NCBI GenBank assembly: GCA_963808235.1
Contig: CAWEEQ010000002.1
Coordinates: 1 to 64,000, forward strand
DNA: 64,000 bases
Direction of reading: 5' to 3'
Origin: an uncultured delta proteobacterium
GTDB lineage: Bacteria > Desulfobacterota > Binatia > Binatales > Binataceae
The notes under the pieces are model-generated. The model was given only the letters and a program-made list of their open reading frames with translations, was not told the DNA's origin and did no database searches. Position numbers and translations under genes: made by a program. Of this stretch, positions 1 to 16,381 are shown one piece after another. Within the stretch, counting starts at the first letter, position 1, and each line of letters begins with the position of its first letter.

Positions 1-8
1 AAAAATCA

Positions 9-270
9 ATGCTGAAACGTAAGGCTTGAGAATCCCGACTTCGTCCTCTTCACGCTCAGCGGTCATATAGACGCCGAGCATGCCGCAGAATTGCAACTGG
101 CCTTCGATGGAGAGGCTCTTCGAATCGTTTTGGATCTCCGAGAGGTGAAGCGTGTCGATCGGGAAGTGGTGGTGGATCTCGCGCGCTGGGATGGAGATAG
201 TATCAAATTCGAAAATTGCCCGGCCTACCTCCGCGAGTGGATTGCGAGGACTCAGATGGATCCTCGTTAG
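9..270 (+). pseudogene. Small STAS-like (anti-sigma antagonist-like) protein, frameshifted near the start
   Basis: ATG at 9 (MLK) is out of frame with VRLENPDFVLFTLSGHIDAEHAAEL...IVLDLREVKRVDRE...ENCPAYLREWI, which ends at TAG 268-270. One extra base near 18. Confidence 0.6.
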
Positions 271-274
271 GGGC

Positions 275-2006: not shown

Positions 2007-2303
2007 CTCGCTGAAACCTGCTCGATGATATAGCGCTCTTGAGGTGGAGGCGCGAGCGTTCCGACACCGCCAGGTGCTGCGACCTCGAAGGCGCAATTCG
2101 AGCTCGTTTGCGCATAGATCACGAAACATCGTTACTGCGCCCTACCCGCGAGGAACGACCAAAATTCGGCGGAGGTTATGCCAGCCTCCGGGAGAGTTGG
2201 ATATGCACCCACCACACCCTTCGCAAGAGTCTCAAAAGGTTCCGGCGGATTAGCCAAGCCTCGCCATGCTCTGACCTTCGCGGAAAACCGAAATCAAAAA
2301 TTG

Positions 2304-2321
2304 TGGGCAGTAATTGGGCAC
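2304..2321. repeat. Tandem TGGGCA(G/C) motifs 11 bp apart; candidate integrase arm-type sites
   Basis: TGGGCAG-TAAT-TGGGCAC, followed by AT-rich GTAAGTACCTAATAAATAA directly before the tRNA 5' end. Confidence 0.4.
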
Positions 2322-2374
2322 TCTGGCGAGCCTCGGATTGCGCGGATCGCCGTAAGTACCTAATAAATAAGGGC

Positions 2375-2470
2375 GGAGGAGGAAGGGGCCCGGTGGCCCC
2401 ACCGGTCTTCAAAACCGGCCTGGCGGCTAATATTGTCGCCGGAGGGTTCGACTCCCTCCCCCCTCCGCCA
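2375..2470 (+). tRNA. selC: tRNA-Sec (anticodon UCA)
   Basis: Anticodon arm CCGGT-CTTCAAA-ACCGG, long variable arm, T arm GAGGG-TTCGACT-CCCTC, 8-bp acceptor GGAGGAGG/CCCCCTCC (one A-C mismatch), ends GCCA; 96 nt. Confidence 0.95.
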
Positions 2471-2481
2471 AGTGCGGTCGC

Positions 2482-2550
2482 TGTACGGGGACTGTTGATC
2501 TGATCATCGGGGCAATTTTCCGGGACTAGGCGGGACTAGCCGGGACCAGG
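2482..2550 (+). repeat. Left end: terminal inverted repeat plus three 10-bp direct repeats
   Basis: TG end at 2482; CGGGACTAGG CGGGACTAGC CGGGACCAGG at 2521-2550. Confidence 0.8.
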
Positions 2551-2722
2551 GCGGACGGGCGGTTCAGAAACATCGCGGCGCGGCGCGGCTTTAAGGGCAT
2601 AGGCGATTTTCGGCGGGAGGTTTCCGCGTAGTCGAGACCGGGTTTGCGGCTTGTCCCGGCAATCGCATACATCACGGTCGCAGCGATTTGTTTGCGCGCG
2701 GCTACGCGTGCTCTGTGTCGCG

Positions 2723-2757
2723 ACGCTGAAAGCACGCTGAAAGTATGATCGTTTCAA
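2723..2757 (+). repeat. Subterminal motifs: ACGCTGAAAG x2 and ATGATC-N3-TCAA
   Basis: ACGCTGAAAG at 2723 and 2734. ATGATCGTTTCAA at 2745-2757 matches the motif at 2495-2507 (minus strand) and 16191-16203. Confidence 0.5.
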
Positions 2758-2838
2758 TGTCCGAGAAGTGAAACAGATTTGCCTTGAGACCGACGTTGTT
2801 GAGGATGGCGATCGCTATTTCGACGATTCCCATCTCGT

Positions 2839-3603
2839 TCACGGAATGGCGCTACCCTTCCAGATCACGCGGCCGAGAATCCCGAACATACTATCTTCAT
2901 CAGACGTGATCGCGACCAAATCAGGCCCGATTATGTTTTTGCGTTTCGTGCGGCGGACCGTCTGACCCGGCATCGATTCGAAGTCTCGATTATCGCAAAG
3001 CAGCCGGAACTTTCCGCTGCCTTCAGCCCGAATGCGGCGGACTAGAATCGAAGGGATGCCCGACGACGATATTTCACTTCCGCCCGCGATGGGTGTCATG
3101 AGTGCCCACACGCCATCGCGGAGATCGCGGTCGCTCGTATTGATCAGAATGAGATCGCCGCTTTCAATATACGGCGCCATCGCATCGCCGGCGGCTTCGG
3201 TGAGAAGAAGCGCCTCGGCGATTGGCGATCCGGGCAAGGATCGAATCCAGTCTTTTTTTAGTGCGAGATAATCGACGCCCTGGTACTCGATTTCGCTATC
3301 GCTCTTGTAGCGGCGAACCAAGGCGTATCCTTCGGGTAGAAGATCCGCGGCCATCGGACCGCGGCCTGCGGCGAGCCATTCGATACTGACGTCGGCGGCA
3401 GTCGCCAACTTAACCAATTTCTCTCGACTCGGTTCGGAGCCGCGAAGCCACAAGTGAACCGAGCTGTCCGACACGCCCGCGGCCTGAGCCAGTGCGAGAA
3501 CGCTTCCGGCGCGATCAATCAGAATCCTAAGTCGATCGGCAAATGACTTCGCGGAGCTGCCGCCGACCGTCGAGTGCGATAGTCTGCTAACTCTCCGAGT
3601 CAT
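2839..3603 (-). CDS. Phage repressor (XRE HTH + degenerate S24 domain)
   Basis: FADRLRILI...LAQAAGVSDSSVHLWLRGSEPSREKLVKLA...VSIEWLAAGRGPM HTH; S24-like GDAMAPYIESGDLILIN; divergent from ner. Confidence 0.88.
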   Translation of the reverse strand: MTRRVSRLSHSTVGGSSAKSFADRLRILIDRAGSVLALAQAAGVSDSSVHLWLRGSEPSREKLVKLATAADVSIEWLAAGRGPMAADLLPEGYALVRRYKSDSEIEYQGVDYLALKKDWIRSLPGSPIAEALLLTEAAGDAMAPYIESGDLILINTSDRDLRDGVWALMTPIAGGSEISSSGIPSILVRRIRAEGSGKFRLLCDNRDFESMPGQTVRRTKRKNIIGPDLVAITSDEDSMFGILGRVIWKGSAIP

Positions 3604-3653
3604 TCTGAATATACCTTGAAATAATCCTAGTTTTATGGAACTCTAGTCACGCC

Positions 3654-3872
3654 ATGTCGCCAGAAAAGCGAACCACGAATCGTGCGAGCGCGTCAACGAA
3701 AGACTGGTCGCGTGCCGATGTGGTCGCTGCACTGTGGAATTGCGGCTGGAGCCTTCGCCGTTTATCGATCGCAAACGGGCTCAAACCCGGCACTTTATCT
3801 AACGTTCTACGGCAGAGCTGGCCAAGCGCCGAAGCGATCATCGCGAAAGCAATCGGCGTATCCCCCGACTGA
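3654..3872 (+). CDS. ner: Ner/Nlp-family DNA-binding protein
   Basis: DWSRADVVAAL...SLRRLSIANGLKPGTLSNVLRQSWPSAEAIIAKAIGVSP is the Mu Ner signature; located between repressor and transposase. Confidence 0.9.
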   Translation: MSPEKRTTNRASASTKDWSRADVVAALWNCGWSLRRLSIANGLKPGTLSNVLRQSWPSAEAIIAKAIGVSPD

Positions 3873-3927
3873 TTTGGCCAAATCGGTACGCGCAGCGCGC
3901 CGAGCGTGCGCATAGGAAGGCGCGGCG

Positions 3928-6081
3928 ATGATACTAACGGCAAAACAAATCGGCGATCGGGTGGGCCTCACGCCTCAAGCGGTCAACCGGCGCGCGCGCC
4001 TGAACAATATCGCGGTTCTCCGAACGCTCGGCAAAGGCGGCGCTAATGGGTATGACAAAACAATATCAAATGCCTTCGACGATAAGCGCCAGCGTGCGAT
4101 CGTGGCGGCGCTATTTCTCCCGGACGGCGCGGCATCTGTGGCTTCGGAGCCATCGGCAGCCGAGGTCTTCCCCGCGGATATCGAAGAGCGGCGCGCATCC
4201 TTGTGGGAGTGCTACGACCGCGCGCCGGCGAAAAAGCGCGCGCGCGCCGATCACCGCGCGGAGATCGCCCGCGCGGTTGATGACCGCGTTGAGGATCTCG
4301 GCTGGACTGGCGCGTATGCGGTCGTGGCGGCGGCGCGTGGCTTGCCGATTCCGACGGTTCGCAGATGGGCGGAAAAAGTTCGGGCCTGCGATCCGGCTGA
4401 CTATCCGGCAATGTTTTTGGACGGTTATAAAGGCTCGCAGCGGAAAACCAAATTTGACCCGATCTTCGATCGCCTTTTTCGCGAGTTTTATTTGAGACTC
4501 ACACAGCCGGCCGCGGCTGTTGCATACGAAAAAGCGATCGCCGCCGCGGCGAATATGATGCCGGGAGATCGCGGCGCAGCGGCCCCGAGTCTCAAGACGC
4601 TGCTCCGCCGATTGCGGCGTGAAGTTCATCCGGACGTCATCGTGTTCAAGCGCGAAGGCGGTGACGCGCTCGACCATAAATACCCGCACTTGCAACGCGA
4701 CCGCTCCGTCTTTCACGCAACTCAGGCCATGAACGCCGACGGGCACCGATGGGATTTTTTCGTGCGCTTGCCGGACGGTGAAGTGTGTAGGCCGATGACC
4801 GTGGCCGTACAAGATTTGTATTCAAATCTATTTCTCGCCTGGCGGACCGGCCGTAGCGAAAATCGCGATGCGGTCCGCCTCGCATTCGGCGACGCCTTTA
4901 GGATTGGGCTTCCGGAGCACATTTTTTTAGATAACGGTCGCGGCGGCATGTCCAAGTGGTTGACGGGGGGGATGACTTTCCGTTTTCGATTTAAGATTAA
5001 ACGCGAGGACCCTGTTGGTCTTTTTGAATCGCTCGGGATCAAGGTTCATGCGACGCGCCCCTATCACGGCCAAAGCAAACCGATCGAGCGCGCGTTCCGC
5101 GATCTCGAAAACCACATGCGCGCGCGGCCCGAGTTGACGGGCGCATGGTGTGGCAACCGACCTGACGCGAAACCGGAAAACTATGGCAACAAAGCCATTG
5201 CTCTCGATGTGTTCTTGCGCGTGATGGATGGCGAAATCGCCGCATACAATCGGCGGCTCAATCGGCGCACCGAAATAGCGCGCGGGCTTTCATTTCAGAA
5301 AGTTTTTGACGAATCCTACGTCAAGTCGCCGATTCGCAAGGCGACCCAGGCACAATTGCGCAAGTGCATGCTGGCCATTGAACGCGTATTTGTTTCGCCG
5401 AAAGATTCGACGATAAACTTGTTCGGCAATAGGTATTGGTCCGAAGTTACGCAGCTCAATCGCGGGCAGCATCTCGCGGCGCGTTTTGATCCCGGTAATT
5501 TGCAAAATCCCGAGGCAATTTTTCTCTACACGCTCGACGATTCGTTTATCGGCACCTGCGAAGTGCGCGATGTGGTCGGCTTCAATGATGCCGACGCGGC
5601 GCGCGATTTCCACCGGGCCAAGAAACTACACAAGCGCGGCATTCGGATGCAGGCGGAGGCGGAGCGCCGCATGGACGATGCCGAACTGCGCGGCTTGATG
5701 GTTGACGCCGCGACGCCCGAAGCCGCCGCGGCGAAAGTCGTGCGGCCGTTTCGGCCGAAGGTCGCGCCGCCACGGTTCAAGCCGCCGCTTGAGCACGCCG
5801 ATCGCGCAGAAGTTGATGCGGCCTACGAGGAGCTGATGGCCGAGCGCCGGACGCGTACGCAGTACGATGAGGCGGCCGAAGTCGCCGGGGCCATCGCTGA
5901 TTATCAGAGAATAGCAGCCATCGCGTGCGAGCAGCGGACGAAAGAAGATTCCGATTGGCTCGAATTTGCCGCGAATTTACCCGAGATCAAGCGGCTCAAG
6001 CGGGCGAAACTTGAAAAAATAAATTCTGAAAATTGGAGCGACGACGACCGGGAGTTTATGGGGATAAAAAATGCCGGCTGA
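3928..6081 (+). CDS. muA: Mu-like DDE transposase (MuA)
   Basis: N-terminal Mu-type HTH; catalytic triad ADGH / LDNG / SKPIERAF; Mu transposase C-terminal GNRYWS...ARFDP. Confidence 0.95.
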   Translation: MILTAKQIGDRVGLTPQAVNRRARLNNIAVLRTLGKGGANGYDKTISNAFDDKRQRAIVAALFLPDGAASVASEPSAAEVFPADIEERRASLWECYDRAPAKKRARADHRAEIARAVDDRVEDLGWTGAYAVVAAARGLPIPTVRRWAEKVRACDPADYPAMFLDGYKGSQRKTKFDPIFDRLFREFYLRLTQPAAAVAYEKAIAAAANMMPGDRGAAAPSLKTLLRRLRREVHPDVIVFKREGGDALDHKYPHLQRDRSVFHATQAMNADGHRWDFFVRLPDGEVCRPMTVAVQDLYSNLFLAWRTGRSENRDAVRLAFGDAFRIGLPEHIFLDNGRGGMSKWLTGGMTFRFRFKIKREDPVGLFESLGIKVHATRPYHGQSKPIERAFRDLENHMRARPELTGAWCGNRPDAKPENYGNKAIALDVFLRVMDGEIAAYNRRLNRRTEIARGLSFQKVFDESYVKSPIRKATQAQLRKCMLAIERVFVSPKDSTINLFGNRYWSEVTQLNRGQHLAARFDPGNLQNPEAIFLYTLDDSFIGTCEVRDVVGFNDADAARDFHRAKKLHKRGIRMQAEAERRMDDAELRGLMVDAATPEAAAAKVVRPFRPKVAPPRFKPPLEHADRAEVDAAYEELMAERRTRTQYDEAAEVAGAIADYQRIAAIACEQRTKEDSDWLEFAANLPEIKRLKRAKLEKINSENWSDDDREFMGIKNAG

Positions 6082-6115
6082 AGCGATAGCCCTTGACCGA
6101 TGGAGGAAACGTCCG

Positions 6116-6916
6116 ATGTCCGACGCAGCGCAACCGATGAATCGCCGCAGTGCCGAGATTATTCCGCTGCGTTCCGCCACCGCGGGCGTAGCGTTCGAAG
6201 CGCCGGAGCATGTCGTCACGCCGACTGGCCGCCGCATTTCGAAGGCGCTCGCGACCGCGCAGACTTTCGGCTTGCCGGTGCTGATTGAAGGCGTATCAGG
6301 TTGCGGGAAAACTTCCGAGCTGAATCATTACGCGGCGACGCATGAAAACGTATCGCTTACGACGATGGCGCCGCATTGCAAAAGCGTGTGGGCGTCGCTC
6401 GACGAGCTGGCCGAATCGATCGGCGTCGGAAGCCATCAGGGGCAGGCGCCGCATCGGGTCGCGCGCGAAATTATCGGGCGACTCAAGGAACGTCCGGGCG
6501 CGCTGCTCATTGTTGATGAAGTTCAGCACCTTGAGGACGCGGCGCTCGAAGAATTGCGTTGCATCCACGATCGAACGCGGATCGGCTTGGCGTTGACCGG
6601 CTCAATCATGCTGTACGGCCGCTTAGTTGGCGGCGCGCGCACCGACAAGATGGCGCAGATTCGGTCGCGGATCGCTCAGCGCCTATCGCTGAAAATGGCC
6701 GCGGAAGGCGATGTAGATGCGCTGCTCGATGCATGGCGCGTGCGCGGACCGGCGGAGCGGAGACTATTGCACGAGATAGCCAAGAAGCCCGGCACGCTGC
6801 GCGCGATGGTGAAGACGCTATCACTCGCGATCGCGGCGGCGACAGCGGACGGCCGCAAAGCGGTCGCGATTGCGGATATTCGCGAATCGTGGGCGCTGCT
6901 GGGAGGAGTGGCCTGA
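6116..6916 (+). CDS. muB: MuB-like AAA+ transposition ATPase lacking the N-terminal HTH appendage
   Basis: VTPTGRRI, Walker A GVSGCGKTS, Walker B LLIVDEVQHL, QIRSRI arginine finger, KPGTLR; GGAGG RBS before ATG 6116 (alternative start 6071). Confidence 0.92.
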   Translation: MSDAAQPMNRRSAEIIPLRSATAGVAFEAPEHVVTPTGRRISKALATAQTFGLPVLIEGVSGCGKTSELNHYAATHENVSLTTMAPHCKSVWASLDELAESIGVGSHQGQAPHRVAREIIGRLKERPGALLIVDEVQHLEDAALEELRCIHDRTRIGLALTGSIMLYGRLVGGARTDKMAQIRSRIAQRLSLKMAAEGDVDALLDAWRVRGPAERRLLHEIAKKPGTLRAMVKTLSLAIAAATADGRKAVAIADIRESWALLGGVA

Positions 6917-7276
6917 ATGTCGAAACGGATCGACATATCAGCCGATGCGCGCGCGGTGATTGAAGAGTTTTTCCTCAAGCATAATTTCTCGCGATACCGC
7001 GAGCTGTCGCGGTTGCTCCGAAAGCGCCACGGCGTGCGGGTCTGCAAAAGCACGCTTCACGAATGGGGCCAAAGCTTGCGCGATGAGTTTGAGGCCGGGC
7101 TGCGTCTCGGGGTTCGGAGGCGCGGAATCGTGGCCGGCGCCGGCCAAGGGACGCCGATGACGACCAGGGCACTGGAACGGCTGGCTGCGGAATTGTCGGA
7201 GGCGGCAGAGGCGCAGCGTTCGGTCAGAAAACGATTGATAACCAAACGCCGCGCGCGGCGGGTGAAAACGGCATGA
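6917..7276 (+). CDS. DUF3486 / Mu gp27-like protein (putative small terminase-like)
   Basis: IEEFFLKHNFSRYRELSRLLRKRHGVRVCKSTLHEWGQ resembles the DUF3486 pattern (F.GY.EL..L...G..ISKSALHRYGQ); abuts the muB stop. Family assigned by eye. Confidence 0.6.
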   Translation: MSKRIDISADARAVIEEFFLKHNFSRYRELSRLLRKRHGVRVCKSTLHEWGQSLRDEFEAGLRLGVRRRGIVAGAGQGTPMTTRALERLAAELSEAAEAQRSVRKRLITKRRARRVKTA

Positions 7277-7950
7277 CGACAATGTCCAGCGCGAAAAAAG
7301 AATTATCGAACTCCGACGAGTTGCGCGGCCGGATCGAGGCCATGCTCGTACCGCAATGGGTGAACGTCGCGGCGATCGCCTTCGCGATCCCGATGTCGAC
7401 GGAGCAGCTGATCGAATGGCTTGCCGGCAATCCGATTAAGGGCAACGTGGCGCGGTTCGAGAAAGAGATTTCCGCATACCTCGAATCACGCGCGGCCTGG
7501 CTCGCTGAAGTGAAGAACGCAGACGCGAACCGGCGGGGTGAACTGAGATTTGCCAGAGCGCGAGAAATCAGAGAGCTGAGCGAGAAACTTGCCGAGGAAC
7601 CAAATCGCACGCCGTACGCGGAAATGCTGCACGACAGCATCGTGTTCGGCTTGCACGATCTGATCTCGCTGTTCGAAGAACGTGGCGCCGGAAACTGTTG
7701 GCAATGCGGCGCGACGCACGATGCGCCGGCGGCGACCGTCGAAACTCAAATCGAAATCAATCTGAGAAACGCCGCTTGGCAGACGTGGCCGGAGGAGGTG
7801 TTCCGGGAGCGGCTGCGCGCGGCGATGGTTGACGGCGAGCGCATCATGGCAGTTAACCCCGGTCGCGTTTGGATTCGGCGGCCGGATGGCAGTGTCTACA
7901 CCGCGCTCAGGGGCGCGCCCATAAACGGGGGCGGCATCGAAGAAGCATGA
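7273..7950 (+). CDS. Protein with MuB-N-terminal-like HTH fused to an unknown CxxC-containing region
   Basis: ATGA overlap with the previous gene; DELRGRIEAML...VAAIAFAIPMSTEQLIEWLAGNPIKGNVARFEKEISAYLESR; CWQCG. Confidence 0.65.
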   Translation: MTTMSSAKKELSNSDELRGRIEAMLVPQWVNVAAIAFAIPMSTEQLIEWLAGNPIKGNVARFEKEISAYLESRAAWLAEVKNADANRRGELRFARAREIRELSEKLAEEPNRTPYAEMLHDSIVFGLHDLISLFEERGAGNCWQCGATHDAPAATVETQIEINLRNAAWQTWPEEVFRERLRAAMVDGERIMAVNPGRVWIRRPDGSVYTALRGAPINGGGIEEA

Positions 7951-7966
7951 CGATGGAATCATCAAC

Positions 7967-8596
7967 GTGCGCCGCGCGATGCGGCGCTCTCTTAACATGG
8001 CTTCGACCGGGAGGCTGAAAAAAGTGGACGACAAAACGCGACCAGATCATGACAAGGAGATCGCTCGGATCATCCGAAAGGCAGCAAGGGAAAGCGCCGC
8101 CGAAATCCAGCCGTGCACCGCTTTCGACGCGCTGGCGATGCTCGCGCCGCTGGATGCTGAACAGCTGAAACTCATCGCCGATGTATTCGCCGCGATGCGG
8201 CCGGTTGCGAAGGCGCAAAATGACAGACACGCAATTGCTAGCGATTCCGCGCGCCCGGCAGCCGGAAAAAGCGGCGGGATCAATAAGCACAAATTGGCGA
8301 TCTCGATAAGGCTGGTGCTCGAAGCGATGGTCGCAAAGAACCGCACCGCGGACCCATATTCTATCGCGGACTTTGTGGTTGATTTCTATGAGAAATGGCA
8401 GCGTGACGGGCGAGAGCCGTCGCCGAAGCAGTTCGCGGGACGAATCAAGCCTACAATCAAGCCTACGATCGCGGGGGCTGCGCCTTATGTCGCTCAGCGA
8501 CGCCGCAAGCGGCCGAGCAACGTAGTCCCGTTCAAACCGCGGGCAGTCAACAAAACGGTTGACGCTCAAGAAGGGGATCCGAAGAAAGCGTCATGA
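7967..8596 (+). CDS. Hypothetical basic protein
   Basis: 209-aa ORF co-oriented in the early operon; start may be ATG 7997; basic C-terminus RRRKRPSNVVPFKPR. Confidence 0.6.
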   Translation: MRRAMRRSLNMASTGRLKKVDDKTRPDHDKEIARIIRKAARESAAEIQPCTAFDALAMLAPLDAEQLKLIADVFAAMRPVAKAQNDRHAIASDSARPAAGKSGGINKHKLAISIRLVLEAMVAKNRTADPYSIADFVVDFYEKWQRDGREPSPKQFAGRIKPTIKPTIAGAAPYVAQRRRKRPSNVVPFKPRAVNKTVDAQEGDPKKAS

Positions 8597-8620
8597 CGAT
8601 TTCGGCCACAGAGAAAGTGC

Positions 8621-8825
8621 TCAAGATTCCTACCGGGAATCTTGATTCGCGCGTCGAGCCTCATAAATGTTCCAAGATGGAACATTTGTTTTCCCGGCGG
8701 CATGAGACAGGGCTAATGGTCGTCGCTAACGACCATTATATCCGACGCTTAGTGAACTTCAGACCCGCCAATTGGCGCAACGCCCGCGACGACGCGCGAT
8801 CAAACTTCCCGGTTGGAAGTTTGAT
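8621..8825. repeat. Array of four perfect 10-11 bp inverted repeats
   Basis: TCAAGATTCC-N5-GGAATCTTGA (8621-8645), AAATGTTCCA-N3-TGGAACATTT (8665-8687), TAATGGTCGT-N5-ACGACCATTA (8714-8738), ATCAAACTTCC-N5-GGAAGTTTGAT (8799-8825). Confidence 0.85.
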
Positions 8826-8843
8826 TCGCGCCGCGAGGGCGCA

Positions 8844-11408
8844 ATGTCACAGACACACCCAAGCCGTAAGCGACCGATAACTATTCTTGCGAGCGTGGTA
8901 TTCGCCGCCGCGATCGCGTCGGCCGCGTCCGCGCAGGCCGTCTCGCCGATCACAAATTTTGTCGGGGCGGGCGCAGGCGCGCAGTTTCGCCAGGCGATCA
9001 ACGATCGCTTGTACGGCGCGCAGCCGATCACTCCGGCATTCGGAAAAGTGGCGTTCTCCGCGCTGCCGGGCGAGGCCGACGGCGCGCTGCTGTACTGCAC
9101 AAATTGCTCGAAGACGACGCCATGCACCGTCGGCGGTCCGGGCGCGTTCGCATTTGGACAGAACGGCAACTGGAGCTGCTCGGCCGGCGCGGCCGGGTCA
9201 AGCTTCCCGTTAACAGCCGCGGTCTCCGCCGCGGGCTTCCCGATCAACGCGCAGCCGGCGGGCGTGGTCACCGGCCAATCGATTGTGTACGGGCAGGCCG
9301 CCGCAAAGTTGCAGTCCTTGACGTCGACGGCGACCGGTGTCGATTCGATCAGTAACTTTTCAGTCAATGGCGTTATCAATCTGTTGGACTATGGGGCTGA
9401 CCCCACTGGCGTGGCCGATTCATCGCCGGCGTGGACGCTCGCGATGGCCGCGGCATGTGCCGCCCAGGCGCCGCTTAGTATTCCACCCGGGACTTACAAA
9501 GCGATCAGCCAGCCGTTTCTGCATGAATGCCCGACGAGCGCGTGGAACACGCTCCCCGACATCATCGGCGCGGGCCGCGGATCGGTCACGCTAGAAAGCG
9601 GCGACGGCGCCAGCATGCTGATGCCCACGATTGTCGAAGCGTCGAACGCGCTCGTTGCTACGAATCTCGAAACGATTCCGGTTTCTCCGCTAGTTGGTTC
9701 AACGGGCCACGCAGCTAAATTCAGCGGGTTTCCAAATCTGCACATCATGCCGCTGGACTATGTGCTCGGCAGTCAGTGGGCCAATGGCGACGCGGCTTTC
9801 ACGGTGGAAGGCTTCTTCAATTCCACGAGCAACGCGGCGGCGCAAGTGATTATCTCAAGCGACGGATCTCCGACGCCAATCAAAAGCGGATGCGGCGCGA
9901 TCGGAGTGAGCAGCGATGTAGTCAGTTGCCAACGCGCGTTCACTGTCTATAAAGACAACGACGGCAAGTTGTATGCGGCGATAAAAACGAGCACGACCGG
10001 ATGGTCCGGCGTGGCAACGCTGAAAAGTGCGTCTGCGCTGACCGCGAACACAACTTATTATTTCCAGCTGTCTTACGATGGGAGCTTCGCGCGACTGTAC
10101 TATGCCACGCCCGGCTCGGCGCTCATTTCGTCCGGCAAGCAGGCGATGACCGGCACTATCGCCCAGGACAAATACGAAGACACGGTGATCGGAGCGGTGT
10201 CCGATTATTGGCATCTCGTCGCGCCCAGTCAGTACTTTGCTGGGACTCTCGACTCGATCCGAATCAGTAACACGGCGCGATGCACCGACGACTCGGGCGG
10301 ATGCACGGCGCCGAGCGCAAAGCTCGGCGGCGACGCTAACACTGTGTTTCTAGAAAACTGGAGCAACACACAGTTCGCGTCCGGATCGCCGCTGGTCTCG
10401 CCGGAATATATCAACGGCACGGCGGCCAGCGCCGGTGCGGAAGCATGGACCTTGATGCTCGACCAGGGCGACGGAAATAGCGAAGGCTTCAATCCTCATC
10501 TTCACGATTTCTCGATCCTGGGAAATTCCGCGGGCATCGTTGCCGATTCCGTCTCTCCGTTCATCGACGATGTCGGCGTAGATGTAAACGGCCCGTTCGG
10601 GATCGACCTGGCAGTGATAGAGGACTACAACGACGTGTTGCGTAAAGTCTACATCACGGCAAACACGCTCGACCTGAAGGCGGCGGGGCTCACGCAGATC
10701 AGCGATTCGTTCTTCGTGTACGCCGGCGCCGGAATCGAAACCAGCGGCGAGAAAATGTCCGGCCTTTACTTCCTTCCGGCGTCGGCCGCGAAGTTCGGCG
10801 TGATCTGCAATGGCTTTTGCTCGGTGAGCGATTCCACAGTCGATAACGAGAACGGCAGCACCGGCGGCGTCAATATTCAGCTCTCGAATATGGCGCAAGC
10901 CTCACAAATGGTTCTGGAAGTATCGAACACTTCGCTGGTAAGTGACCCGAGCCAGCCGGTGATTGCGATCGATGGCAATGCGGCGAACCCTGCGAATCAA
11001 ATCAGCCTTGAAGATGTGCAGCTATCTCATGCGGGCGGCACCGGCCCGTACGTAGCGAGCGGCACGATGAACGGAAGCATGAGTGAAGCTGTTCTTTTCA
11101 AGAACCCAGCCTTTGTTGGGACTGGCGGCCCAATTCCAGCCAGCGGCGACAGCTACGTCAGCAGCGGCACTTTCGGGGCCGGAACCCTGATTCCATATTG
11201 TGTAGAGAGCGGGATAGGAAGTACCTGCTTTACAAAAGTAGGCGGCCTGGCGGCTTGCACGGGCGGCCCTATCGACCATCAGCACATGACGGTGACAGAC
11301 GCTAACGCCGGTTGTAGCGCAGGTACGACAGCGGCCGGCGGCGGAACAACCTATTGCGATGAATACTGCGCGGGGGCTTCTACCGCGTGGAAGGAGACAG
11401 GAAACTAA
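8844..11408 (+). CDS. Signal-peptide-bearing tailspike-like protein (pectin-lyase-like beta-helix with inserted LamG/concanavalin domain)
   Basis: Sec signal (KRPITILASVVFAAAIASAASA|Q); INLLDYGADPTGVADSSPAW...IPPGTY beta-helix entry; LamG FTVEGFF...YFQLSYDGS...FAGTLDSIRISNTAR; Cys-rich terminal modules. Confidence 0.8.
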   Translation: MSQTHPSRKRPITILASVVFAAAIASAASAQAVSPITNFVGAGAGAQFRQAINDRLYGAQPITPAFGKVAFSALPGEADGALLYCTNCSKTTPCTVGGPGAFAFGQNGNWSCSAGAAGSSFPLTAAVSAAGFPINAQPAGVVTGQSIVYGQAAAKLQSLTSTATGVDSISNFSVNGVINLLDYGADPTGVADSSPAWTLAMAAACAAQAPLSIPPGTYKAISQPFLHECPTSAWNTLPDIIGAGRGSVTLESGDGASMLMPTIVEASNALVATNLETIPVSPLVGSTGHAAKFSGFPNLHIMPLDYVLGSQWANGDAAFTVEGFFNSTSNAAAQVIISSDGSPTPIKSGCGAIGVSSDVVSCQRAFTVYKDNDGKLYAAIKTSTTGWSGVATLKSASALTANTTYYFQLSYDGSFARLYYATPGSALISSGKQAMTGTIAQDKYEDTVIGAVSDYWHLVAPSQYFAGTLDSIRISNTARCTDDSGGCTAPSAKLGGDANTVFLENWSNTQFASGSPLVSPEYINGTAASAGAEAWTLMLDQGDGNSEGFNPHLHDFSILGNSAGIVADSVSPFIDDVGVDVNGPFGIDLAVIEDYNDVLRKVYITANTLDLKAAGLTQISDSFFVYAGAGIETSGEKMSGLYFLPASAAKFGVICNGFCSVSDSTVDNENGSTGGVNIQLSNMAQASQMVLEVSNTSLVSDPSQPVIAIDGNAANPANQISLEDVQLSHAGGTGPYVASGTMNGSMSEAVLFKNPAFVGTGGPIPASGDSYVSSGTFGAGTLIPYCVESGIGSTCFTKVGGLAACTGGPIDHQHMTVTDANAGCSAGTTAAGGGTTYCDEYCAGASTAWKETGN

Positions 11409-11410
11409 AA

Positions 11411-12022
11411 ATGGAATCACAAATAAATGTCCTGAACGCGAGCGACGTGGCGCAGAGAACGTCCGGCGAGATTCGGCTTGCGAAGGCGGCCGAGACCGCG
11501 ATCGAGAAGGTCATGAGCGCGAGCCCGCAGAAGCGCGCCGCGAAAATAGTTGAATGGGCCGCCGCGTACCAGTGCGCGAGCGATGAAGCGCGGATCACCG
11601 TCGCGAATCATATCGTCGCCTTTGGGCGCGATGCGTTTGAGTTTATCGAGCGCTGCGACTTCGGCGGCTTGAATAGCCTGATCAGCGCGTTCGCTTCGAA
11701 CGTGAGAACGTACGCGGAAATCCCGCCGGCGGCGCCGCCGCTAATGATGCCAGAGATCGGCGGTGACGTTTTCCGTTCGTTCGGATGGTCGATGAAAGAA
11801 CAAGACTCGTTGCAAACGGTGCTGCTCACTCCATCGCTCGGCGTGAAGCGAGGCGATCGCGTAGTCGAGATCGACGAGCACGGCGTGCGATTGGCGAGCG
11901 GACTGAAATTCACGCGCGCGCAACTCTTTGCGGCGGGCAACCACTCGAAGGAAGGAGACAGTGGCGGCGGCCACGTTCCGACGGCGCCGGGACGAACCGG
12001 GATTAGGGAGGTAAGAAGATGA
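11411..12022 (+). CDS. Hypothetical protein
   Basis: ATG 2 bp after the previous stop; ATGA overlap with the next gene. Confidence 0.7.
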   Translation: MESQINVLNASDVAQRTSGEIRLAKAAETAIEKVMSASPQKRAAKIVEWAAAYQCASDEARITVANHIVAFGRDAFEFIERCDFGGLNSLISAFASNVRTYAEIPPAAPPLMMPEIGGDVFRSFGWSMKEQDSLQTVLLTPSLGVKRGDRVVEIDEHGVRLASGLKFTRAQLFAAGNHSKEGDSGGGHVPTAPGRTGIREVRR

Positions 12023-12492
12023 ACCTGGTTGCGACGCCATCGGCGATGAACACGAAGCGGATGCAGCATAGCGCCGTGCAGCTCGGCGGCGGCGGCCTGA
12101 TTCTAATCGTTGGCGGTCTCGATCAGAACGGCAACCCGCTCGCGAGCGCGGAGCTGTTCGATCCCGCGACGGGCGTCTTCACGACGATCGCCGGGGCGCT
12201 CAATGTCGCTCGATATAATCACGCGGCGATCGTGACGAGCGGCGGAGCTGTATTCATCATTGGCGGCCAAGGCGCCGGCGCGGCGTTTCTGGCGAGTGTC
12301 GAAGTGTTCACGCCTGGTGCGGGACGCCCGGAAGTCACAGGCACGTTCGTAACGGCTGCAAGTGGCCTTTCAGCGGCCCGCGCGAGCATTGCCGCCCGAC
12401 TTCTCGTCGATGGCCGGATCCTGGTGACTGGCGGCGCCGACAGCGGCGACGCGGCGCTGAATGTCGCGGAGATTTACTCGCCCGGAATTTGA
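12019..12492 (+). CDS. Kelch-repeat protein (three blades)
   Basis: Three repeats of R..H.A..L..G.ILI.GG...LASAE.F.P; strong GGAGG RBS. Confidence 0.85.
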   Translation: MNLVATPSAMNTKRMQHSAVQLGGGGLILIVGGLDQNGNPLASAELFDPATGVFTTIAGALNVARYNHAAIVTSGGAVFIIGGQGAGAAFLASVEVFTPGAGRPEVTGTFVTAASGLSAARASIAARLLVDGRILVTGGADSGDAALNVAEIYSPGI

Positions 12493-12526
12493 AACAAGCG
12501 CCCGAAATGGAGATGAGCGGCCAAAC

Positions 12527-12868
12527 ATGAAACATACAATGACCCCGGATCAAGTGCGGCTTCTAGGCGGCCCGGAACGGCTAGCAGCCATTCACCGGCA
12601 AATTGCGAGCGAGGGTACCGCTGTGATGTCCTCCATGCACACGACACCCGCTAAGTCTGGCGTGTACGACGATGACGACGAAAATCTCAACGAGGACTCG
12701 TCGCCGGGTGAGTTCGTAACGGCCGCGCAAAGACACCTGAAAAAATATCTCGCGGCGCCGGATGCCGATGACGCCGACAATCGGATCGGGTTGGCGAGTG
12801 CCTATCTATCCACGGCGCTCGCCAAACGCGCTCGCACAAGCCAACAGGCGCGTGCGCGCCGCTGGTAA
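12527..12868 (+). CDS. Hypothetical protein with acidic patch
   Basis: ORF in operon orientation, GGAG upstream; YDDDDENLNEDS. Confidence 0.6.
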   Translation: MKHTMTPDQVRLLGGPERLAAIHRQIASEGTAVMSSMHTTPAKSGVYDDDDENLNEDSSPGEFVTAAQRHLKKYLAAPDADDADNRIGLASAYLSTALAKRARTSQQARARRW

Positions 12869-12874
12869 AGTAGA

Positions 12875-12959
12875 TGGCCGGGAATGTTGACTAGTCCTCG
12901 GCCCGGCGGGAATTGCCCTGCCGGCGGCTCGCACTGGCAGTGCGGCCGGTTCCCGGCCA
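12875..12959 (+). ncRNA. Putative multi-branched structured RNA / cis-element
   Basis: Closing stem TGGCCGGGAA/TTCCCGGCCA encloses two GC-rich hairpins in an intergenic gap. Confidence 0.35.
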
Positions 12960-12975
12960 GTCCGGTTGACGCCGG

Positions 12976-13173
12976 ATGACGGGGTTCTCCGTATGTCCGA
13001 GGTGTGGAAGAAGGTTTTTGTTGGCTGTCGATGTTTGCGACTTTTGCCGCGACAGCGCGGTTCCGGGCGGCCGAAAGCTGATGGTTCGATTGTGGAATGT
13101 AACTCGATCGCGCTTTGGCATGGTCTATCACGGCCCAGGGGCGCTGAATCGGCACACTAGGATGGGAAAATGA
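12976..13173 (+). CDS. Small zinc-ribbon protein
   Basis: CPRC-x10-CDFC; stop overlaps the next start (ATGA at 13170-13173). Confidence 0.5.
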   Translation: MTGFSVCPRCGRRFLLAVDVCDFCRDSAVPGGRKLMVRLWNVTRSRFGMVYHGPGALNRHTRMGK

Positions 13174-13460
13174 AGCGCAATATCCACGTCGATGCGGCCT
13201 GCGCGCGCATTATCTCCATACGCCGGGAGCAAATCGTTTTGCTCACGCGATCGTTGGATCGCATGAAGCGGATCGCGCGGCTTCCGTTCGCTGAGGCGGA
13301 CGATACGAAGCTTGCGGCTACATTGAACGCGCTGGCAAACGCGCTCGATTTGAACTCGTTGACCCAGATGAAAACAAACGAGGAATCCGATCGCGATCTG
13401 GAGAAGAAGGCCCGCGAAATCTCCGCGAAGTCCGTCAAGTCGGCCGCGACCAGGAACTAG
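13170..13460 (+). CDS. Hypothetical helical protein directly upstream of the tape measure
   Basis: 96-aa ORF ending 6 bp before the TMP start; occupies the tail-assembly-chaperone position but no family recognised. Confidence 0.6.
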   Translation: MKRNIHVDAACARIISIRREQIVLLTRSLDRMKRIARLPFAEADDTKLAATLNALANALDLNSLTQMKTNEESDRDLEKKAREISAKSVKSAATRN

Positions 13461-13466
13461 GCGGGA

Positions 13467-15425
13467 ATGGCTTCTATCCGCGACTTCGTTTTCGGCTTCC
13501 GGCTCGAGGTGATCGATCACCTGAGCGGTGTGCTGAAAAACGTCGAGACGCGAATCGAGGGAATCAACGCGGCGGCGGCGAGAGGGTCGCATCTGCGCGA
13601 AGCGTCGGCGACGCTCGGCAAGATAGGTCTCGCCGGAATCGCGGCCGGCGGCGGCCTCGCGTATGGGCTCGGAAAGATCACCGAGTCGGCGATGAAGGGC
13701 GACGACGCAACTCGCCACATGATGACCGCGTTCGACCTCAGCGTCCCGGCCGCACAGCAGACTAAACACCTCGCCGAAACGCTCAAGATGGTAAAGGAAG
13801 CATCGCAGGCGACGGGCATGTCGCAGGATGCGCTTAAGGACTCAGTTTACAACGCAAAAATGATGATGCTGAGCGATGCAGACGCAAATGCCGTCGCGGC
13901 GGCGTCGGCGAAGCTGGCGATAGGCACTACGCACGATTTCGCGGAGGCCCAAGCCAATGTGGCGGACGTAAGCGCGATGCTCGCCACGACTCAGAACGTT
14001 CTGGGTGGCAGCGTGTCGGCCCTCTCTGACAAATTCGCACTTCTACAATCTCACTACGGTTTCGAGCGGCTCCCGGATCTAAAGGCCGCGTGGGATTACA
14101 TCCTCCCCTCGATAAAAGCCGTGAAGTTGGCCCAGGACGATGCCATGGCCGCAATGGCGGTACTCAGCACCAGTGGCTATCAAAAAGATCGAATTGGGAC
14201 CGCCATGGAGGAGGTAGTCGCCAAGATAACGACTGGGAAGGCTGCACTGCGCTCTTTAGTCGTGGCCAACAAAGAAGGTGGCCCGGATCTGGAAAAGACT
14301 AGCGAGCGCCTTGCGGGCATCACCGCCGCGATGTCTGCGCTTCAGCGTGCCAGTTATCTTAAAACCCTGGGATTCAACCTACGCGACGTGCAGGTGATGG
14401 AGACGCTGATCGATGGCGTGAAGAAGTTCCATGCGGCGCGCGCGGACCTCGCCAATAGTAAGGGCGCGACCGACGCGCTCTTCAACATACGGTCGCAAGG
14501 TGCGGACGAGAAGTGGGGGCAGCTGCAAAATAATCTCAGCATTCTGAGCGAGACGCTCGGAAACTCGCTGTTGCCGTCGGTCACCAAGGTGGTTTCAAAA
14601 CTCAACACTGCGGTTATAGCCGTAACCGAGTTTGCTGAAAGCTATAAGCCGTTCGTCAAAGTGGCCATGACGGTAGCCGCCATCAGCTCTGCTGTGCTGC
14701 TGGTCGGTGGCGGCCTGGCGCTGGCGTCGTCGGCGCTGCTGGGCTTCGTCAGCTTCGTTCCTGCGCTGAAAGAAGTGTCGGCGGCGTTCAAGCTCGGCGC
14801 GGCGGTGACCAAGATCTGGACGGCCGCGCAATGGGCGCTCGACGCGGCGATGGCCGTGGGCGTGGCTCCCATCGTGCTCACGATCGCCGCGGTCGCCGCC
14901 CTGGGAGTAGCGATTTACGAAGTCTACAAGCACTGGGCGGCGATCAAGAACTTCGGAAAAGAAATGTACGACGCCGGCATGAATATCGTGAAAGCGATTG
15001 GCTCTGGAATCGCGGCGGGCGCGATGTATCCGGTCCATGCGATTGAACACGCCTTGTCGTTAGTTCGCGCGCATCTACCGTTCTCACCGGCGAAGATTGG
15101 ACCGTTGCGTGATCTGAATCGCGTGCGAATCGTCGAGACGATCGCCGACTCGATGAAGCCCGCGGCGATGGTGACTTCAATGCGCCGCGTCGCGGCCATA
15201 GTCGCGTTCTCGGCGCCGATGATGGCTACGCCGGCTTTCGCCGGCGGCTTTGCCAGAGCGTCTGCCGGCGGCGGATCTTCGATTGTAATCAACATCACGC
15301 AGAACATCACGATCAAGCCGGGCGCCGACGCGGGCGAAGTTCTTGCGGTGATGCGGGCTTCAGGCCGCGAGCTGGCGGATACACTCAGGCGCGAAATGGA
15401 ACATGATGAAAGGCGACACTACTGA
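13467..15425 (+). CDS. Phage tail tape measure protein (652 aa)
   Basis: N-terminal LEVIDHLSG, Ala-rich helical core with QLQNNLSILSETLGNSLLPSV, hydrophobic segments (IWTAAQWALDAAM), C-terminal HLPFSPAKIGPLRDL...INITQNITI. Confidence 0.9.
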   Translation: MASIRDFVFGFRLEVIDHLSGVLKNVETRIEGINAAAARGSHLREASATLGKIGLAGIAAGGGLAYGLGKITESAMKGDDATRHMMTAFDLSVPAAQQTKHLAETLKMVKEASQATGMSQDALKDSVYNAKMMMLSDADANAVAAASAKLAIGTTHDFAEAQANVADVSAMLATTQNVLGGSVSALSDKFALLQSHYGFERLPDLKAAWDYILPSIKAVKLAQDDAMAAMAVLSTSGYQKDRIGTAMEEVVAKITTGKAALRSLVVANKEGGPDLEKTSERLAGITAAMSALQRASYLKTLGFNLRDVQVMETLIDGVKKFHAARADLANSKGATDALFNIRSQGADEKWGQLQNNLSILSETLGNSLLPSVTKVVSKLNTAVIAVTEFAESYKPFVKVAMTVAAISSAVLLVGGGLALASSALLGFVSFVPALKEVSAAFKLGAAVTKIWTAAQWALDAAMAVGVAPIVLTIAAVAALGVAIYEVYKHWAAIKNFGKEMYDAGMNIVKAIGSGIAAGAMYPVHAIEHALSLVRAHLPFSPAKIGPLRDLNRVRIVETIADSMKPAAMVTSMRRVAAIVAFSAPMMATPAFAGGFARASAGGGSSIVINITQNITIKPGADAGEVLAVMRASGRELADTLRREMEHDERRHY

Positions 15426-15720
15426 GAAAAAGGCTCGTCGTACGCAAACTGGAATCGCCGGCGAAGGTCTCGCGCGGGCGATTCGGGAGTACGGCCGCGG
15501 CCATAAGCTTGAGCTTAATGCGGCTTCCGAAGAGGTGCTCGAAAGGCTAGCCGCGACATTCAACGATATCGGCCTTCTCCCACTAGAAGGCGATTACGAC
15601 GTGCTCGTAGCGCGCGGGCTACGGGCTATTGCCGATGAGTTTCGTCAGGCCAACTTGAGGCCAGAAGTTATCGACGCTATGCGAGAGCTGCTGGCCGAGA
15701 TTCGCGAGGCAGGCGTGTGA
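15406..15720 (+). CDS. Hypothetical protein
   Basis: Overlaps the TMP end; about 104 aa, protein-like composition. Confidence 0.6.
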   Translation: MKGDTTEKKARRTQTGIAGEGLARAIREYGRGHKLELNAASEEVLERLAATFNDIGLLPLEGDYDVLVARGLRAIADEFRQANLRPEVIDAMRELLAEIREAGV

Positions 15721-15768
15721 GCACAAGCGTTGAGGCGCACCGCGCTCGGGGCTACACTCAACACTCGC

Positions 15769-16182
15769 ATGCGGATCGAAGCGAAATTAAAGAAATATCC
15801 AGGGCCGACGGAGCGCGGTTCCGTCGTGTGGGATTCAGAGACGGGCGAGCTGGCCGGCAGTCTCGCCGCGGAGATCGCCGAGGCTGCGCACGAGGCCGAC
15901 GCTCGCGGATGGGTTCCGGTCGGTCCGATGTTCTCCTACGAATTGCCGGTTAAGGATGTTCTACACACGCCGGCAGAGTTCGCGGCCGTCCTGTACTATC
16001 TCGGCTACGATGAACTGCCGCGCGAGCTGGCCGGCGAGTTTAGTTGTGAGCCTCCCGATTCAGACGACGGGTGCGATCTGCTTCCGGTATCTGAAATGCC
16101 GGCGCTGCTTGAATCGGATGCGGAATTTCTGCGCAGCCGCGGCATCCGCGTTTCGCCCAACCGTAAGATAATTCCCGGCTAA
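15769..16182 (+). CDS. Hypothetical acidic protein, last gene of the element
   Basis: MRIEAKLKKYPGPTERGSVVWDSETGELAG...; start uncertain (15730-15769). Confidence 0.6.
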   Translation: MRIEAKLKKYPGPTERGSVVWDSETGELAGSLAAEIAEAAHEADARGWVPVGPMFSYELPVKDVLHTPAEFAAVLYYLGYDELPRELAGEFSCEPPDSDDGCDLLPVSEMPALLESDAEFLRSRGIRVSPNRKIIPG

Positions 16183-16190
16183 GCCGAGAA

Positions 16191-16306
16191 ATGATCACAT
16201 CAAGCGATCAGGCGTCGGCGCACGAAAACAGCTTAAAAGTAGTCTGGCGGCGCGCCGGTGATCACCATCAACTGTCTCGCATGATCATTCCTAGTGTCCG
16301 GGTACA
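16191..16306 (-). repeat. Right end: terminal inverted repeat and internal TGATCA-containing sites
   Basis: ATGATCACATCAA (16191), GTGATCACCATCAA (16259), ATGATCATTCC (16281); ends GTACA at 16306, followed by GTCGC. Confidence 0.8.
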
Positions 16307-16381
16307 GTCGCGCAGCAAATTTCCTGATAGCATAGAGATATGGCGTTTTGTGATCGTAGTTTCAGAGATCGAGACGGAATC

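Follow-up and report, generated by a model that had tools for sequence, protein, structure and literature searches.

What is an element that carries the complete transposition module of bacteriophage Mu, together with a tape measure but no head genes? The question is raised by 13,825 bp of DNA lying at positions 2482-16306 of a 64,000-nt stretch (the window; element coordinates below are window positions) from an uncultured bacterium of the genus Candidatus Binatus, family Binataceae, whose genome we term G000. An earlier examination of the letters of the window (the sequence-only reading) proposed that this is a helper-dependent phage satellite that replicates by transposition, rather than a randomly decaying prophage. 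We have compared the element with 47 genomes of the genus and 165 of the family. The reading that we favour is that the element is a transposition-replicated phage satellite with a domesticated resident prophage cluster as its helper, to which we assign a probability of about 0.5. Random decay is unlikely, and packaging by the helper is a part of this reading that we infer.

A complete Mu-type module within exact ends

The element is a discrete insertion. Read directly, it starts at 2482 with TGTACGGGG and ends at 16306 with CCGGGTACA, with the same 5 bp on either side. To either side of the span from the repressor to the tape-measure gene, every TG..CA pair flanked by identical 5-bp sequences was scored by the number of matching terminal bases (of 25); this pair matches at 17/25, and the runner-up at 10/25. 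The exact termini and 5-bp duplication reported earlier are thus borne out.

The order of motifs at the left end is also found at the left ends of the elements of genomes G028, G027 and G070, and the layout common to the family is TG, ~18 bases, TGATCA, GGCAA(C)TTT and three CCGGAC-type repeats. At the right end, TGATCA arrays like those of the window occur in G027, G028, G070, G015 and G003, the common layout being two or three TGATCA motifs with a spacing of ~23 bp. The left-end repeats are candidate MuA binding sites, and by analogy with Mu the left end is a candidate pac site. A tRNA-SeC gene (2375-2470) lies 11 bp to the left of the element. In G035, another species of the same genus, this tRNA is followed within ~40 bp by a homologue of the right-flank sequence of the window, an arrangement resembling an empty site that fits insertion of the element.

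The repressor, ner, MuA and MuB genes are all complete, as the sequence-only reading held, judged by family profiles (Pfam and PHROG, with which all 18 ORFs (open reading frames) of the element were scanned) and, for MuA, by alignment to a protein of known structure. MuA aligns to the chain of the Mu transpososome structure 4FCY (2.8e-79), and the catalytic D, D and E motifs (nADGh, lDNgRG and kPiERaf) are intact in this alignment. The protein is 33-38% identical to phage MuA proteins. The MuB-type ATPase gives weak additional matches to TniB, in the window and in relatives. MuA with its C-terminal domain, MuB with MuB_C, TG..CA termini with a 5-bp duplication and, on the left, a repressor and Ner that diverge from each other are all found together, i.e. 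the whole of a Mu-type transposition and immunity module.

The repressor is CI-like, with Ser replaced by Ala and Lys by Arg at the autocleavage positions (GDAM and RR, where the repressor of the resident cluster described below has GDSM and KR). These substitutions fit the earlier proposal of a non-cleavable repressor. A search of the repressor against PDB sequences gave no matches.

Downstream of MuB there are 14 co-oriented ORFs of at least 65 aa (6917-16171) and not about 12 as first counted, with stops and starts that mostly overlap or abut. Firm family matches among them are limited to a Kelch protein (157 aa) and a tape measure (652 aa). None of the 18 ORFs of the element matches a capsid, portal, terminase, protease, sheath, tube, baseplate, Gam, Mor or lysis family in Pfam, PHROG or TIGR profiles, in agreement with the sequence-only reading, and PADLOC gave no matches to defence families for 15 ORFs. 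Besides MuA, only the tape measure and the ORF at 8772-11408 (878 aa) are longer than 281 aa, which leaves no space in which a portal, large terminase or sheath could be hidden. A complete Mu-like phage would have its own terminase, portal, capsid, tail and lysis genes inside the ends; here the tape measure alone is present.

A conserved family of compact elements

Seven of the 47 genomes of the genus share the compact gene order, which also occurs in two other genera. It runs repressor-ner-MuA-MuB-ORF5-ORF6-(GemA)-ORF10-Kelch-(protease N-domain)-ORF12-(gpD hub)-ORF13/14-tape measure and then a few small ORFs, where brackets denote genes present in some copies and the protease N-domain is the N-terminal protease domain of Mu gpI. 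Besides G000, the genus genomes with this order are G027, G028, G015, G003, G070 and G018. The last, an unpublished genome that has the order on a 10.3-kb contig, is among those matching the DDE_2 transposase model; the other family results are independent of it.

MuA relatives with 38-44% identity were found in four other genus genomes, and the DDE_2 model added the copy in G070. This model matches in 6/47 genus and 9/165 family genomes, and in all six genus copies that it matches, including that of G018, the transposase frame is open (672-770 aa). The tape-measure ORF is whole in the five copies for which it was listed. Four elements have defined ends: that of the window (flanking repeat GTCGC), those of G028 (12,121 bp, ATCAG) and G027 (11,904 bp, AGAAAAG, i.e. 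5 bp plus two ambiguous bases), and that of G183 in another genus (12,871 bp, CTCAT, with 18/25 terminal matches). Lengths thus span 11.9-13.8 kb, while duplications and sites differ between copies. The contigs of G070, G015 and G003 stop exactly at the element ends, as expected of mobile or polymorphic DNA. Exact scans for 5-bp duplications gave no convincing ends for G015, for G151 or for the second-lineage copy in G015:C1 described below.

Protein identity between copies ranges from 30 to 77%. The ratio of non-synonymous to synonymous substitution (dN/dS), proposed earlier as a check, is 0.17-0.40 for the repressor, ORF6, Kelch protein, ORF12, tape measure, ORF10 and MuA, at dS ~0.8-1.8; as dS is near saturation these ratios are, if anything, overestimates. 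These coding-sequence comparisons show that purifying selection has preserved the reduced gene set in independent insertions. The copies are also mosaic. The left part of the window element is nearest to G028 (repressor 75%, ORF6 66% identity) and its right part to G027 (Kelch 77%, tape measure 54%).

These data bear on the possibility that the element is a decaying, defective Mu-like prophage, i.e. a functionless remnant of internal deletion, with the likeness between copies reflecting shared ancestry of one old deletion. The MuA gene of the G003 copy is broken by five stop codons and that copy is clearly decaying, and gpD, protease, GemA and Kelch genes are each present in some copies and absent from others. 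Against this stand the open transposase frames and whole tape measures, the four elements with flanking repeats at different sites, the low dN/dS together with the mosaic modules, and the contig breaks at element ends. Two observations had been named in advance as fatal to the satellite proposal: a compact architecture that is not conserved in independent insertions, or full-length closest relatives from which this copy derives by a deletion junction. The architecture is conserved, and no full-length parent with a deletion junction was found among the 47 genus genomes, in which the only extra capsid gene that is not a split one is an unexamined second gpT copy in G014. The genes that tie the window to other copies sit in compact elements and not in full-length prophages, which makes random decay unlikely; we regard it as highly improbable. 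The element is very probably functional, one of a conserved family of compact Mu-type elements, and not debris. It is discrete and mobile, has a conserved small size and lacks capsid and packaging genes, as is characteristic of satellites.

Further compact forms exist. G151 has a third, of ~10.5 kb, with a protease-like ORF, full-length gp27, the gpV spike and gpX, and the G183 element also has a full-length gp27. A second lineage combines an rve-type transposase bearing a Mu C-terminal domain with a MuB-like ATPase, GemA, a 642-659 aa tape measure, gpD and a Mor-like protein; its copies are L073 (G015:C1), L072 (G003:C9), L069 (G016:C103) and L071 (G061:C37), of which that in G003:C9 is 12,181 bp long with the duplication GATCG. 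The sole full-length-looking Mu-like prophage seen in the family is in G167, of another genus (L081/L082, G167:C16:173001-213000). It has Ner, MuA, MuB, GemA, Mor and a TerL that is 29% identical to that of the resident cluster. It shares only early genes with the elements, at 33-42% identity (MuA 33%), and has no homologues of their late genes. This prophage could be a present-day free-living relative.

A Mu-like virion cluster resident in the genome

A co-resident, full Mu-like helper had been suggested as something to look for. A candidate helper was found, though it is a fixed virion cluster without a transposase and not a full Mu-like phage. It lies at ~996,480-1,034,500 of contig C4 of G000 (L064, L065), on a separate contig from the element. 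The genes run in the order CI-like repressor, Mor, gp27, TerL and Mu portal; then Mu protease I, a virion protein, gpT capsid, Gp37, sheath, tube and a 344-aa tape-measure-like ORF; and finally gpU, gpX, gpD, gpV, gpW, gpJ, gpI and a fibre gene. Only two small ORFs fit between the repressor and Mor, so the ner-A-B region is gone. The virion genes are present in single copy in G000. A screen of this genome gave no matches to PF05065 (HK97-type capsid), PF04860 (generic portal) or PF03237 (Terminase_6N), and since Terminase_6N misses even the TerL of the cluster this screen for head genes is not exhaustive.

The gpT capsid gene is present in 47/47 genus genomes (a tally that includes the unpublished G018 and G023), with one or two matches in each; a second match reflects a split gene in G003, G026 and G066, and a second copy on another contig in G014. 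It is also present in 15/17 further sampled genomes of the family, covering 7/8 genera. In G017 the same host genes border the cluster on either side; in G006 they do so on the right, the only side within the stretch fetched. The gpT protein is 93% identical, compared with 56-88% for the aligned flanking genes. The cluster thus comprises vertically inherited virion genes without replication or mobility genes of their own, as in a gene transfer agent (GTA), and from its gene content we consider it a candidate Mu-derived GTA-like system in the Binataceae.

This raises the possibility that the element is a mutualist module of a GTA-like system. The cluster would be a particle factory controlled by the host, to which the element adds replication or amplification and targeting, making the particles efficient transducers. 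Vertical inheritance, a capsid gene more conserved than its aligned host flanks and a cluster repressor with intact SOS-type cleavage residues all point in this direction, and an element that fills one third of a headful would, if packaged as Mu is, take the adjoining host DNA with it. The first-family element is nevertheless present in only seven of the 47 genus genomes, so the cluster is maintained without it. We consider a mutualist module improbable.

Relationship between the element and the cluster

Several genes of the elements are diverged versions of cluster genes. The gpD copies carried by elements are 43-44% identical to the cluster gpD, and their protease N-domains are 47-50% identical to the cluster protease (51% for the G070 copy). 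Over their final 54 residues, the element tape measures are homologous to the short tape-measure-like ORFs of the cluster (hhalign Prob 90, E 1.7e-6), with a roughly two-fold difference in length (627-659 aa in the elements, 272-369 aa in the cluster). Different elements keep different diverged copies, drawn from gp27, the protease N-domain, tape measure, hub gpD, spike gpV and gpX. This lends comparative support to the earlier argument that parts interfacing with a helper have been selectively retained. The support does not extend to the tailspike-like ORF of the window that was part of that argument (ORF9). Its matches are below threshold, it has a paralogue on the G000 chromosome (C4:2622565-2625522, 40-44% identity) and it is absent from every other element compared; from this distribution it is better read as a cargo gene. 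As for the gp27-like protein, ORF5 of the window has no significant match (hhalign to gp27 Prob 10.8, E 0.0028), while its homologues in G027 and G028 match PF11985 (Mu gp27) across the N-terminal 70 positions.

The repressors also differ. That of the cluster keeps the Ser and Lys, and all five aligned element repressors lack both. Uniform loss of the autocleavage residues fits a dependence of the elements on induction of another element.

Two other relationships were considered and rejected. The element does not supply a tape measure missing from the cluster, which has its own short ORF with the same C-terminal motif; such an ORF is found in the cluster of 43/47 genomes, and in 42 of these its frame is open over 110-405 aa, the match being free of stops. 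Nor does the cluster lack gp27, which was found at G000:C4:1001520-1002059.

A further explanation is that the element is an autonomous large transposon of Mu-like phage descent, spreading within genomes by MuA and MuB and between cells by other routes, never packaged, and with its phage-like genes co-opted for a non-virion or host role. Its transposition module is complete and a target duplication is present, its GC content (58-61%) is no different from the flanking DNA, our searches yielded no evidence of packaging, and genes resembling cargo have chromosomal paralogues (ORF9, Kelch, and at least six for a family of right-end ORFs). The genes retained by the elements are, however, specifically virion parts homologous to those of the cluster (tape measure, gpD, gpV, gpX, protease N-domain and gp27) and are under purifying selection, and the contrast in repressor residues is uniform. 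We know of no role for a tape measure or a small-terminase-like gp27 outside particle assembly. A never-packaged transposon therefore seems to us somewhat unlikely.

A possible mechanism and its difficulties

If the element is a satellite of the cluster, it might function as follows. After derepression it would be copied by MuA/MuB replicative transposition, and the gp27/TerL machinery of the cluster would load the copies, beginning at the left end, into resident capsids. Mu packages DNA by headful. As the element is ~1/3 of a Mu-size headful, adjacent host DNA would be packaged along with it. The late genes of the element could then replace or modify the tail-tip and assembly parts of the resident particle; these would be the long tape measure and chaperone-like ORFs in the window, and gpD, gpV, gpX, the protease N-domain or gp27 in sister elements.

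A more extensive proposal is a two-part Mu system, in which a family-wide, SOS-inducible virion factory serves mobile mini-Mu satellites of 10-14 kb (of at least two transposase lineages) that bring their own gp27, tape-measure, hub and spike variants. This would be a natural form of generalised transduction driven by transposition, or 'mini-muduction'. Each packaged copy would carry ~25 kb of neighbouring host DNA, and the elements would be the first satellite class replicating by transposition. We advance this proposal tentatively, and think it possible rather than probable.

A number of observations weigh against a satellite served by this cluster. On the side of the cluster, the portal and protease genes are split by a 13.7-kb non-phage block (encoding methyltransferase, Flp pilin, NHL-repeat and DUF7948 proteins). 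There is a deletion from the tube gene to gpJ in G017, and gpT is split in G003 and G026, so the conservation of the cluster is strong but not universal. Since the cluster owns a gp27 and a tape-measure-like ORF, the element versions are not needed to complete it. On the side of the element, the window copy has no gpD, no protease domain and no significant gp27 match, and no family or fold assigns a function to ORF6, ORF10 or ORF12. There is a single copy of MuA, and of the whole element, in G000, so recent replicative transposition is not visible. The left-end, pac-like motif was not found beside the cluster or elsewhere in G000, by motif search or by blastn-short with both ends. Among wider data, a scan of IMG/VR with the Kelch profile gave 64 pattern matches and none confirmed. 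Four soil-metagenome runs from one study contained 13-30% of element words, in short contigs with a depth of ~2-4; these runs gave no joints and nothing at the element junctions, and no RNA run was listed as carrying the element. Lastly, all the genomes are metagenome-assembled.

Other genes and features

The coordinates of the features are collected in Table 1. ORF6 is specific to the family. Its model (predicted local distance difference test score, pLDDT, 83.5) has an N-terminal helix-turn-helix (HTH) that resembles the N-terminal domain of MuB (2mqk, Z 9.2, root-mean-square deviation 2.1, 65 aligned), and a fold search matched nothing meaningful beyond this HTH. An invariant CxxC (C142, C145) lies between the helical part and the beta domain, in a stretch of lower confidence in the model. 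There are 32 homologues in 5.8 billion clusters, unnamed or called 'hypothetical protein', and the two with an organism name are both Candidatus Binatus sp.; a Joint Genome Institute (JGI) metagenome scan with the ORF6 profile gave 592 pattern matches, of which none was confirmed. The ESM Atlas had no usable match for ORF6 or for ORF10. The latter has 39 representatives in 1.84 billion. Its AlphaFold model (pLDDT 79.6) is a generic helical bundle for which Foldseek against the PDB and BFVD found nothing at E <= 0.001, and VIA-align gave generic three-helix-bundle matches only, with Z 9.1 or lower.

The listed start of ORF9 is a TTG, possibly too far upstream. The Kelch protein has the size of about three blades, so it would need to oligomerise to form a closed propeller. 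It has many paralogues on the G000 chromosome; a scan of the genome collection with the Kelch profile gave 39 loci, of which four have a Mu context and 35 are ordinary cellular Kelch proteins. ORF13 and ORF14 are candidate tail assembly chaperones by position only, and their counterparts in relatives give weak zinc-ribbon matches.

Several sister elements have a right-end ORF of 109-126 aa that has no family match and no detectable homologue in the window element. It has 3 to 8 paralogues on the G000 chromosome, depending on the query, at 29-43% identity. Copies lie at L017:6362-6742(-), L019:15726-16055(+), L021:129-497(-) and L066 ~5254-5580.

Outside the element, window positions 1-2416, which include a gene for a PAS/sigma-54 activator and the 5' half of tRNA-SeC, are repeated at 99% at the end of contig C4 (G000:C4:3847154-3849571), and the two copies diverge within the anticodon loop of the tRNA. 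Other genomes of the genus contain several partial 5' copies of tRNA-SeC (window 2284-2416). The 2.4-kb repeat has the appearance of a fork in the assembly, or of an island inserted in tRNA-SeC.

Table 1. Features of the element and its termini, in window coordinates.
Feature	Position	Strand	Basis
Target-site duplication, left copy, GTCGC	2477-2481	.	Identical to 16307-16311
Left end: TG terminus, TGATCA at 2501, GGCAATTTT, three CGGGAC(T/C)AG-type repeats	2482-2566	+	Direct reading
CI-like repressor, HTH and S24-like domain	2839-3603	-	phrog_4 5.6e-26
Ner-like regulator	3654-3872	+	HTH_35 4.6e-15; phrog_769 1.5e-21
MuA transposase	3928-6081	+	DDE_2 1.9e-47, HTH_Tnp_Mu_2, Mu-transpos_C
MuB AAA+ target-DNA activator	6071-6916	+	AAA_22 2e-14, Phage-MuB_C 6.1e-17
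ORF5, 119 aa, HTH protein	6917-7276	+	HTH_32 E 0.009; gp27 comparison below significance
ORF6, 225 aa, family-specific	7273-7950	+	N-terminal HTH, long helical part, small beta domain
ORF7, 209 aa	7967-8596	+	No match to Pfam, PHROG, PADLOC, TIGR profiles
ORF8, 95 aa	8593-8880	+	No match to Pfam, PHROG, PADLOC, TIGR profiles
ORF9, 878 aa, lectin/pectate-lyase-like	8772-11408	+	Laminin_G_3 and pectate-lyase matches, sub-threshold
ORF10, 211 aa, conserved in family	11387-12022	+	Helical bundle and small beta domain (AlphaFold)
Kelch-repeat protein, 157 aa, half-propeller size	12019-12492	+	Kelch_1 6.8e-16
ORF12, 135 aa, acidic/helical, conserved in family	12461-12868	+	Family comparison
ORF13 (65 aa) and ORF14 (96 aa)	12976-13460	+	Position immediately 5' of tape measure
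Tape measure, 652 aa	13467-15425	+	phrog_28 1.8e-36; TIGR01760 above cut-off
Three small ORFs, 105, 78 and 71 aa	15403-16171	+	No match to Pfam, PHROG, PADLOC, TIGR profiles
Right end: TGATCA at 16192, 16259 and 16282, then CA terminus	16177-16306	+	Direct reading
Target-site duplication, right copy, GTCGC	16307-16311	.	Identical to 2477-2481

Comparison with known systems

The element shares with full-length Mu-like phages the MuA/MuB/Ner/repressor module and the structure of the ends, and sister elements share GemA with them. Those phages are 31.6-38.9 kb long with complete head and tail modules, whereas the window element is 13.8 kb and lacks these. A DDE transposase paired with a MuB/TniB-like ATPase is also found in transposons of the Tn7/Tn5053 type, which have no Mu-transpos_C, MuB_C, Ner, CI-type repressor or tail genes, and whose ends and duplications are organised differently.

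A further parallel is the laboratory mini-Mu, which has no virion genes and is packaged by helper Mu together with adjacent host DNA ('mini-muduction'). The abstract of one paper lists the L and R ends, MuA and MuB as the requirements of mini-Mu (PMC3145075). The window element likewise has both Mu ends, the c/ner/A/B module and a fraction of a headful in length. Laboratory mini-Mus are engineered deletions of one phage, while the compact form described here is natural and conserved across genera at 30-77% identity; moreover the elements have tail-tip genes of their own, and it is the putative helper that lacks transposition genes.

The resident cluster resembles RcGTA and other GTAs in being derived from a phage, inherited vertically, devoid of replication and transposition genes and conserved across a bacterial family. 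It differs in that its virion genes are of the Mu-like myovirus type and are accompanied by Mor and an SOS-type repressor.

In common with the P4, PICI/SaPI, cf-PICI, PLE and PICMI satellites, the elements are ~10-15 kb long and most or all virion genes are missing. As in known satellites their repressor is not tied to the SOS response and genes that may act at the helper interface are kept, and the small-terminase-like gp27 of sister elements parallels the TerS of PICI. Known satellites integrate by tyrosine or serine recombinases and replicate as episomes, and site-specific recombinases are used by every described class that we know of. The element family uses Mu DDE transposition instead, and keeps a tape measure, hub and spike; we know of no described satellite class with these three. 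One P4-like satellite with an integrase, AH14b, is described in a passage of a paper that also mentions Mu-like phages (PMC4936722). Among the titles and abstracts of the literature searched, no Mu-type satellite and no Mu-like GTA turned up, and on prophages of the Binatota there was a single paper, which concerns plant microbiomes.

A satellite that amplifies itself by the Mu mechanism would introduce a new mode of replication among satellites. Because its helper would be a virion cluster fixed in the family and not a competent phage, the case would link satellites with gene transfer agents. If an element of one-third size is packaged by headful, random host DNA should also be co-transferred efficiently in this abundant, uncultured lineage of soil bacteria. 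Finally, the tail-tip parts that are retained, i.e. tape measure, hub, spike and gpX, raise the question of whether such a satellite re-arms the injection device of its helper.

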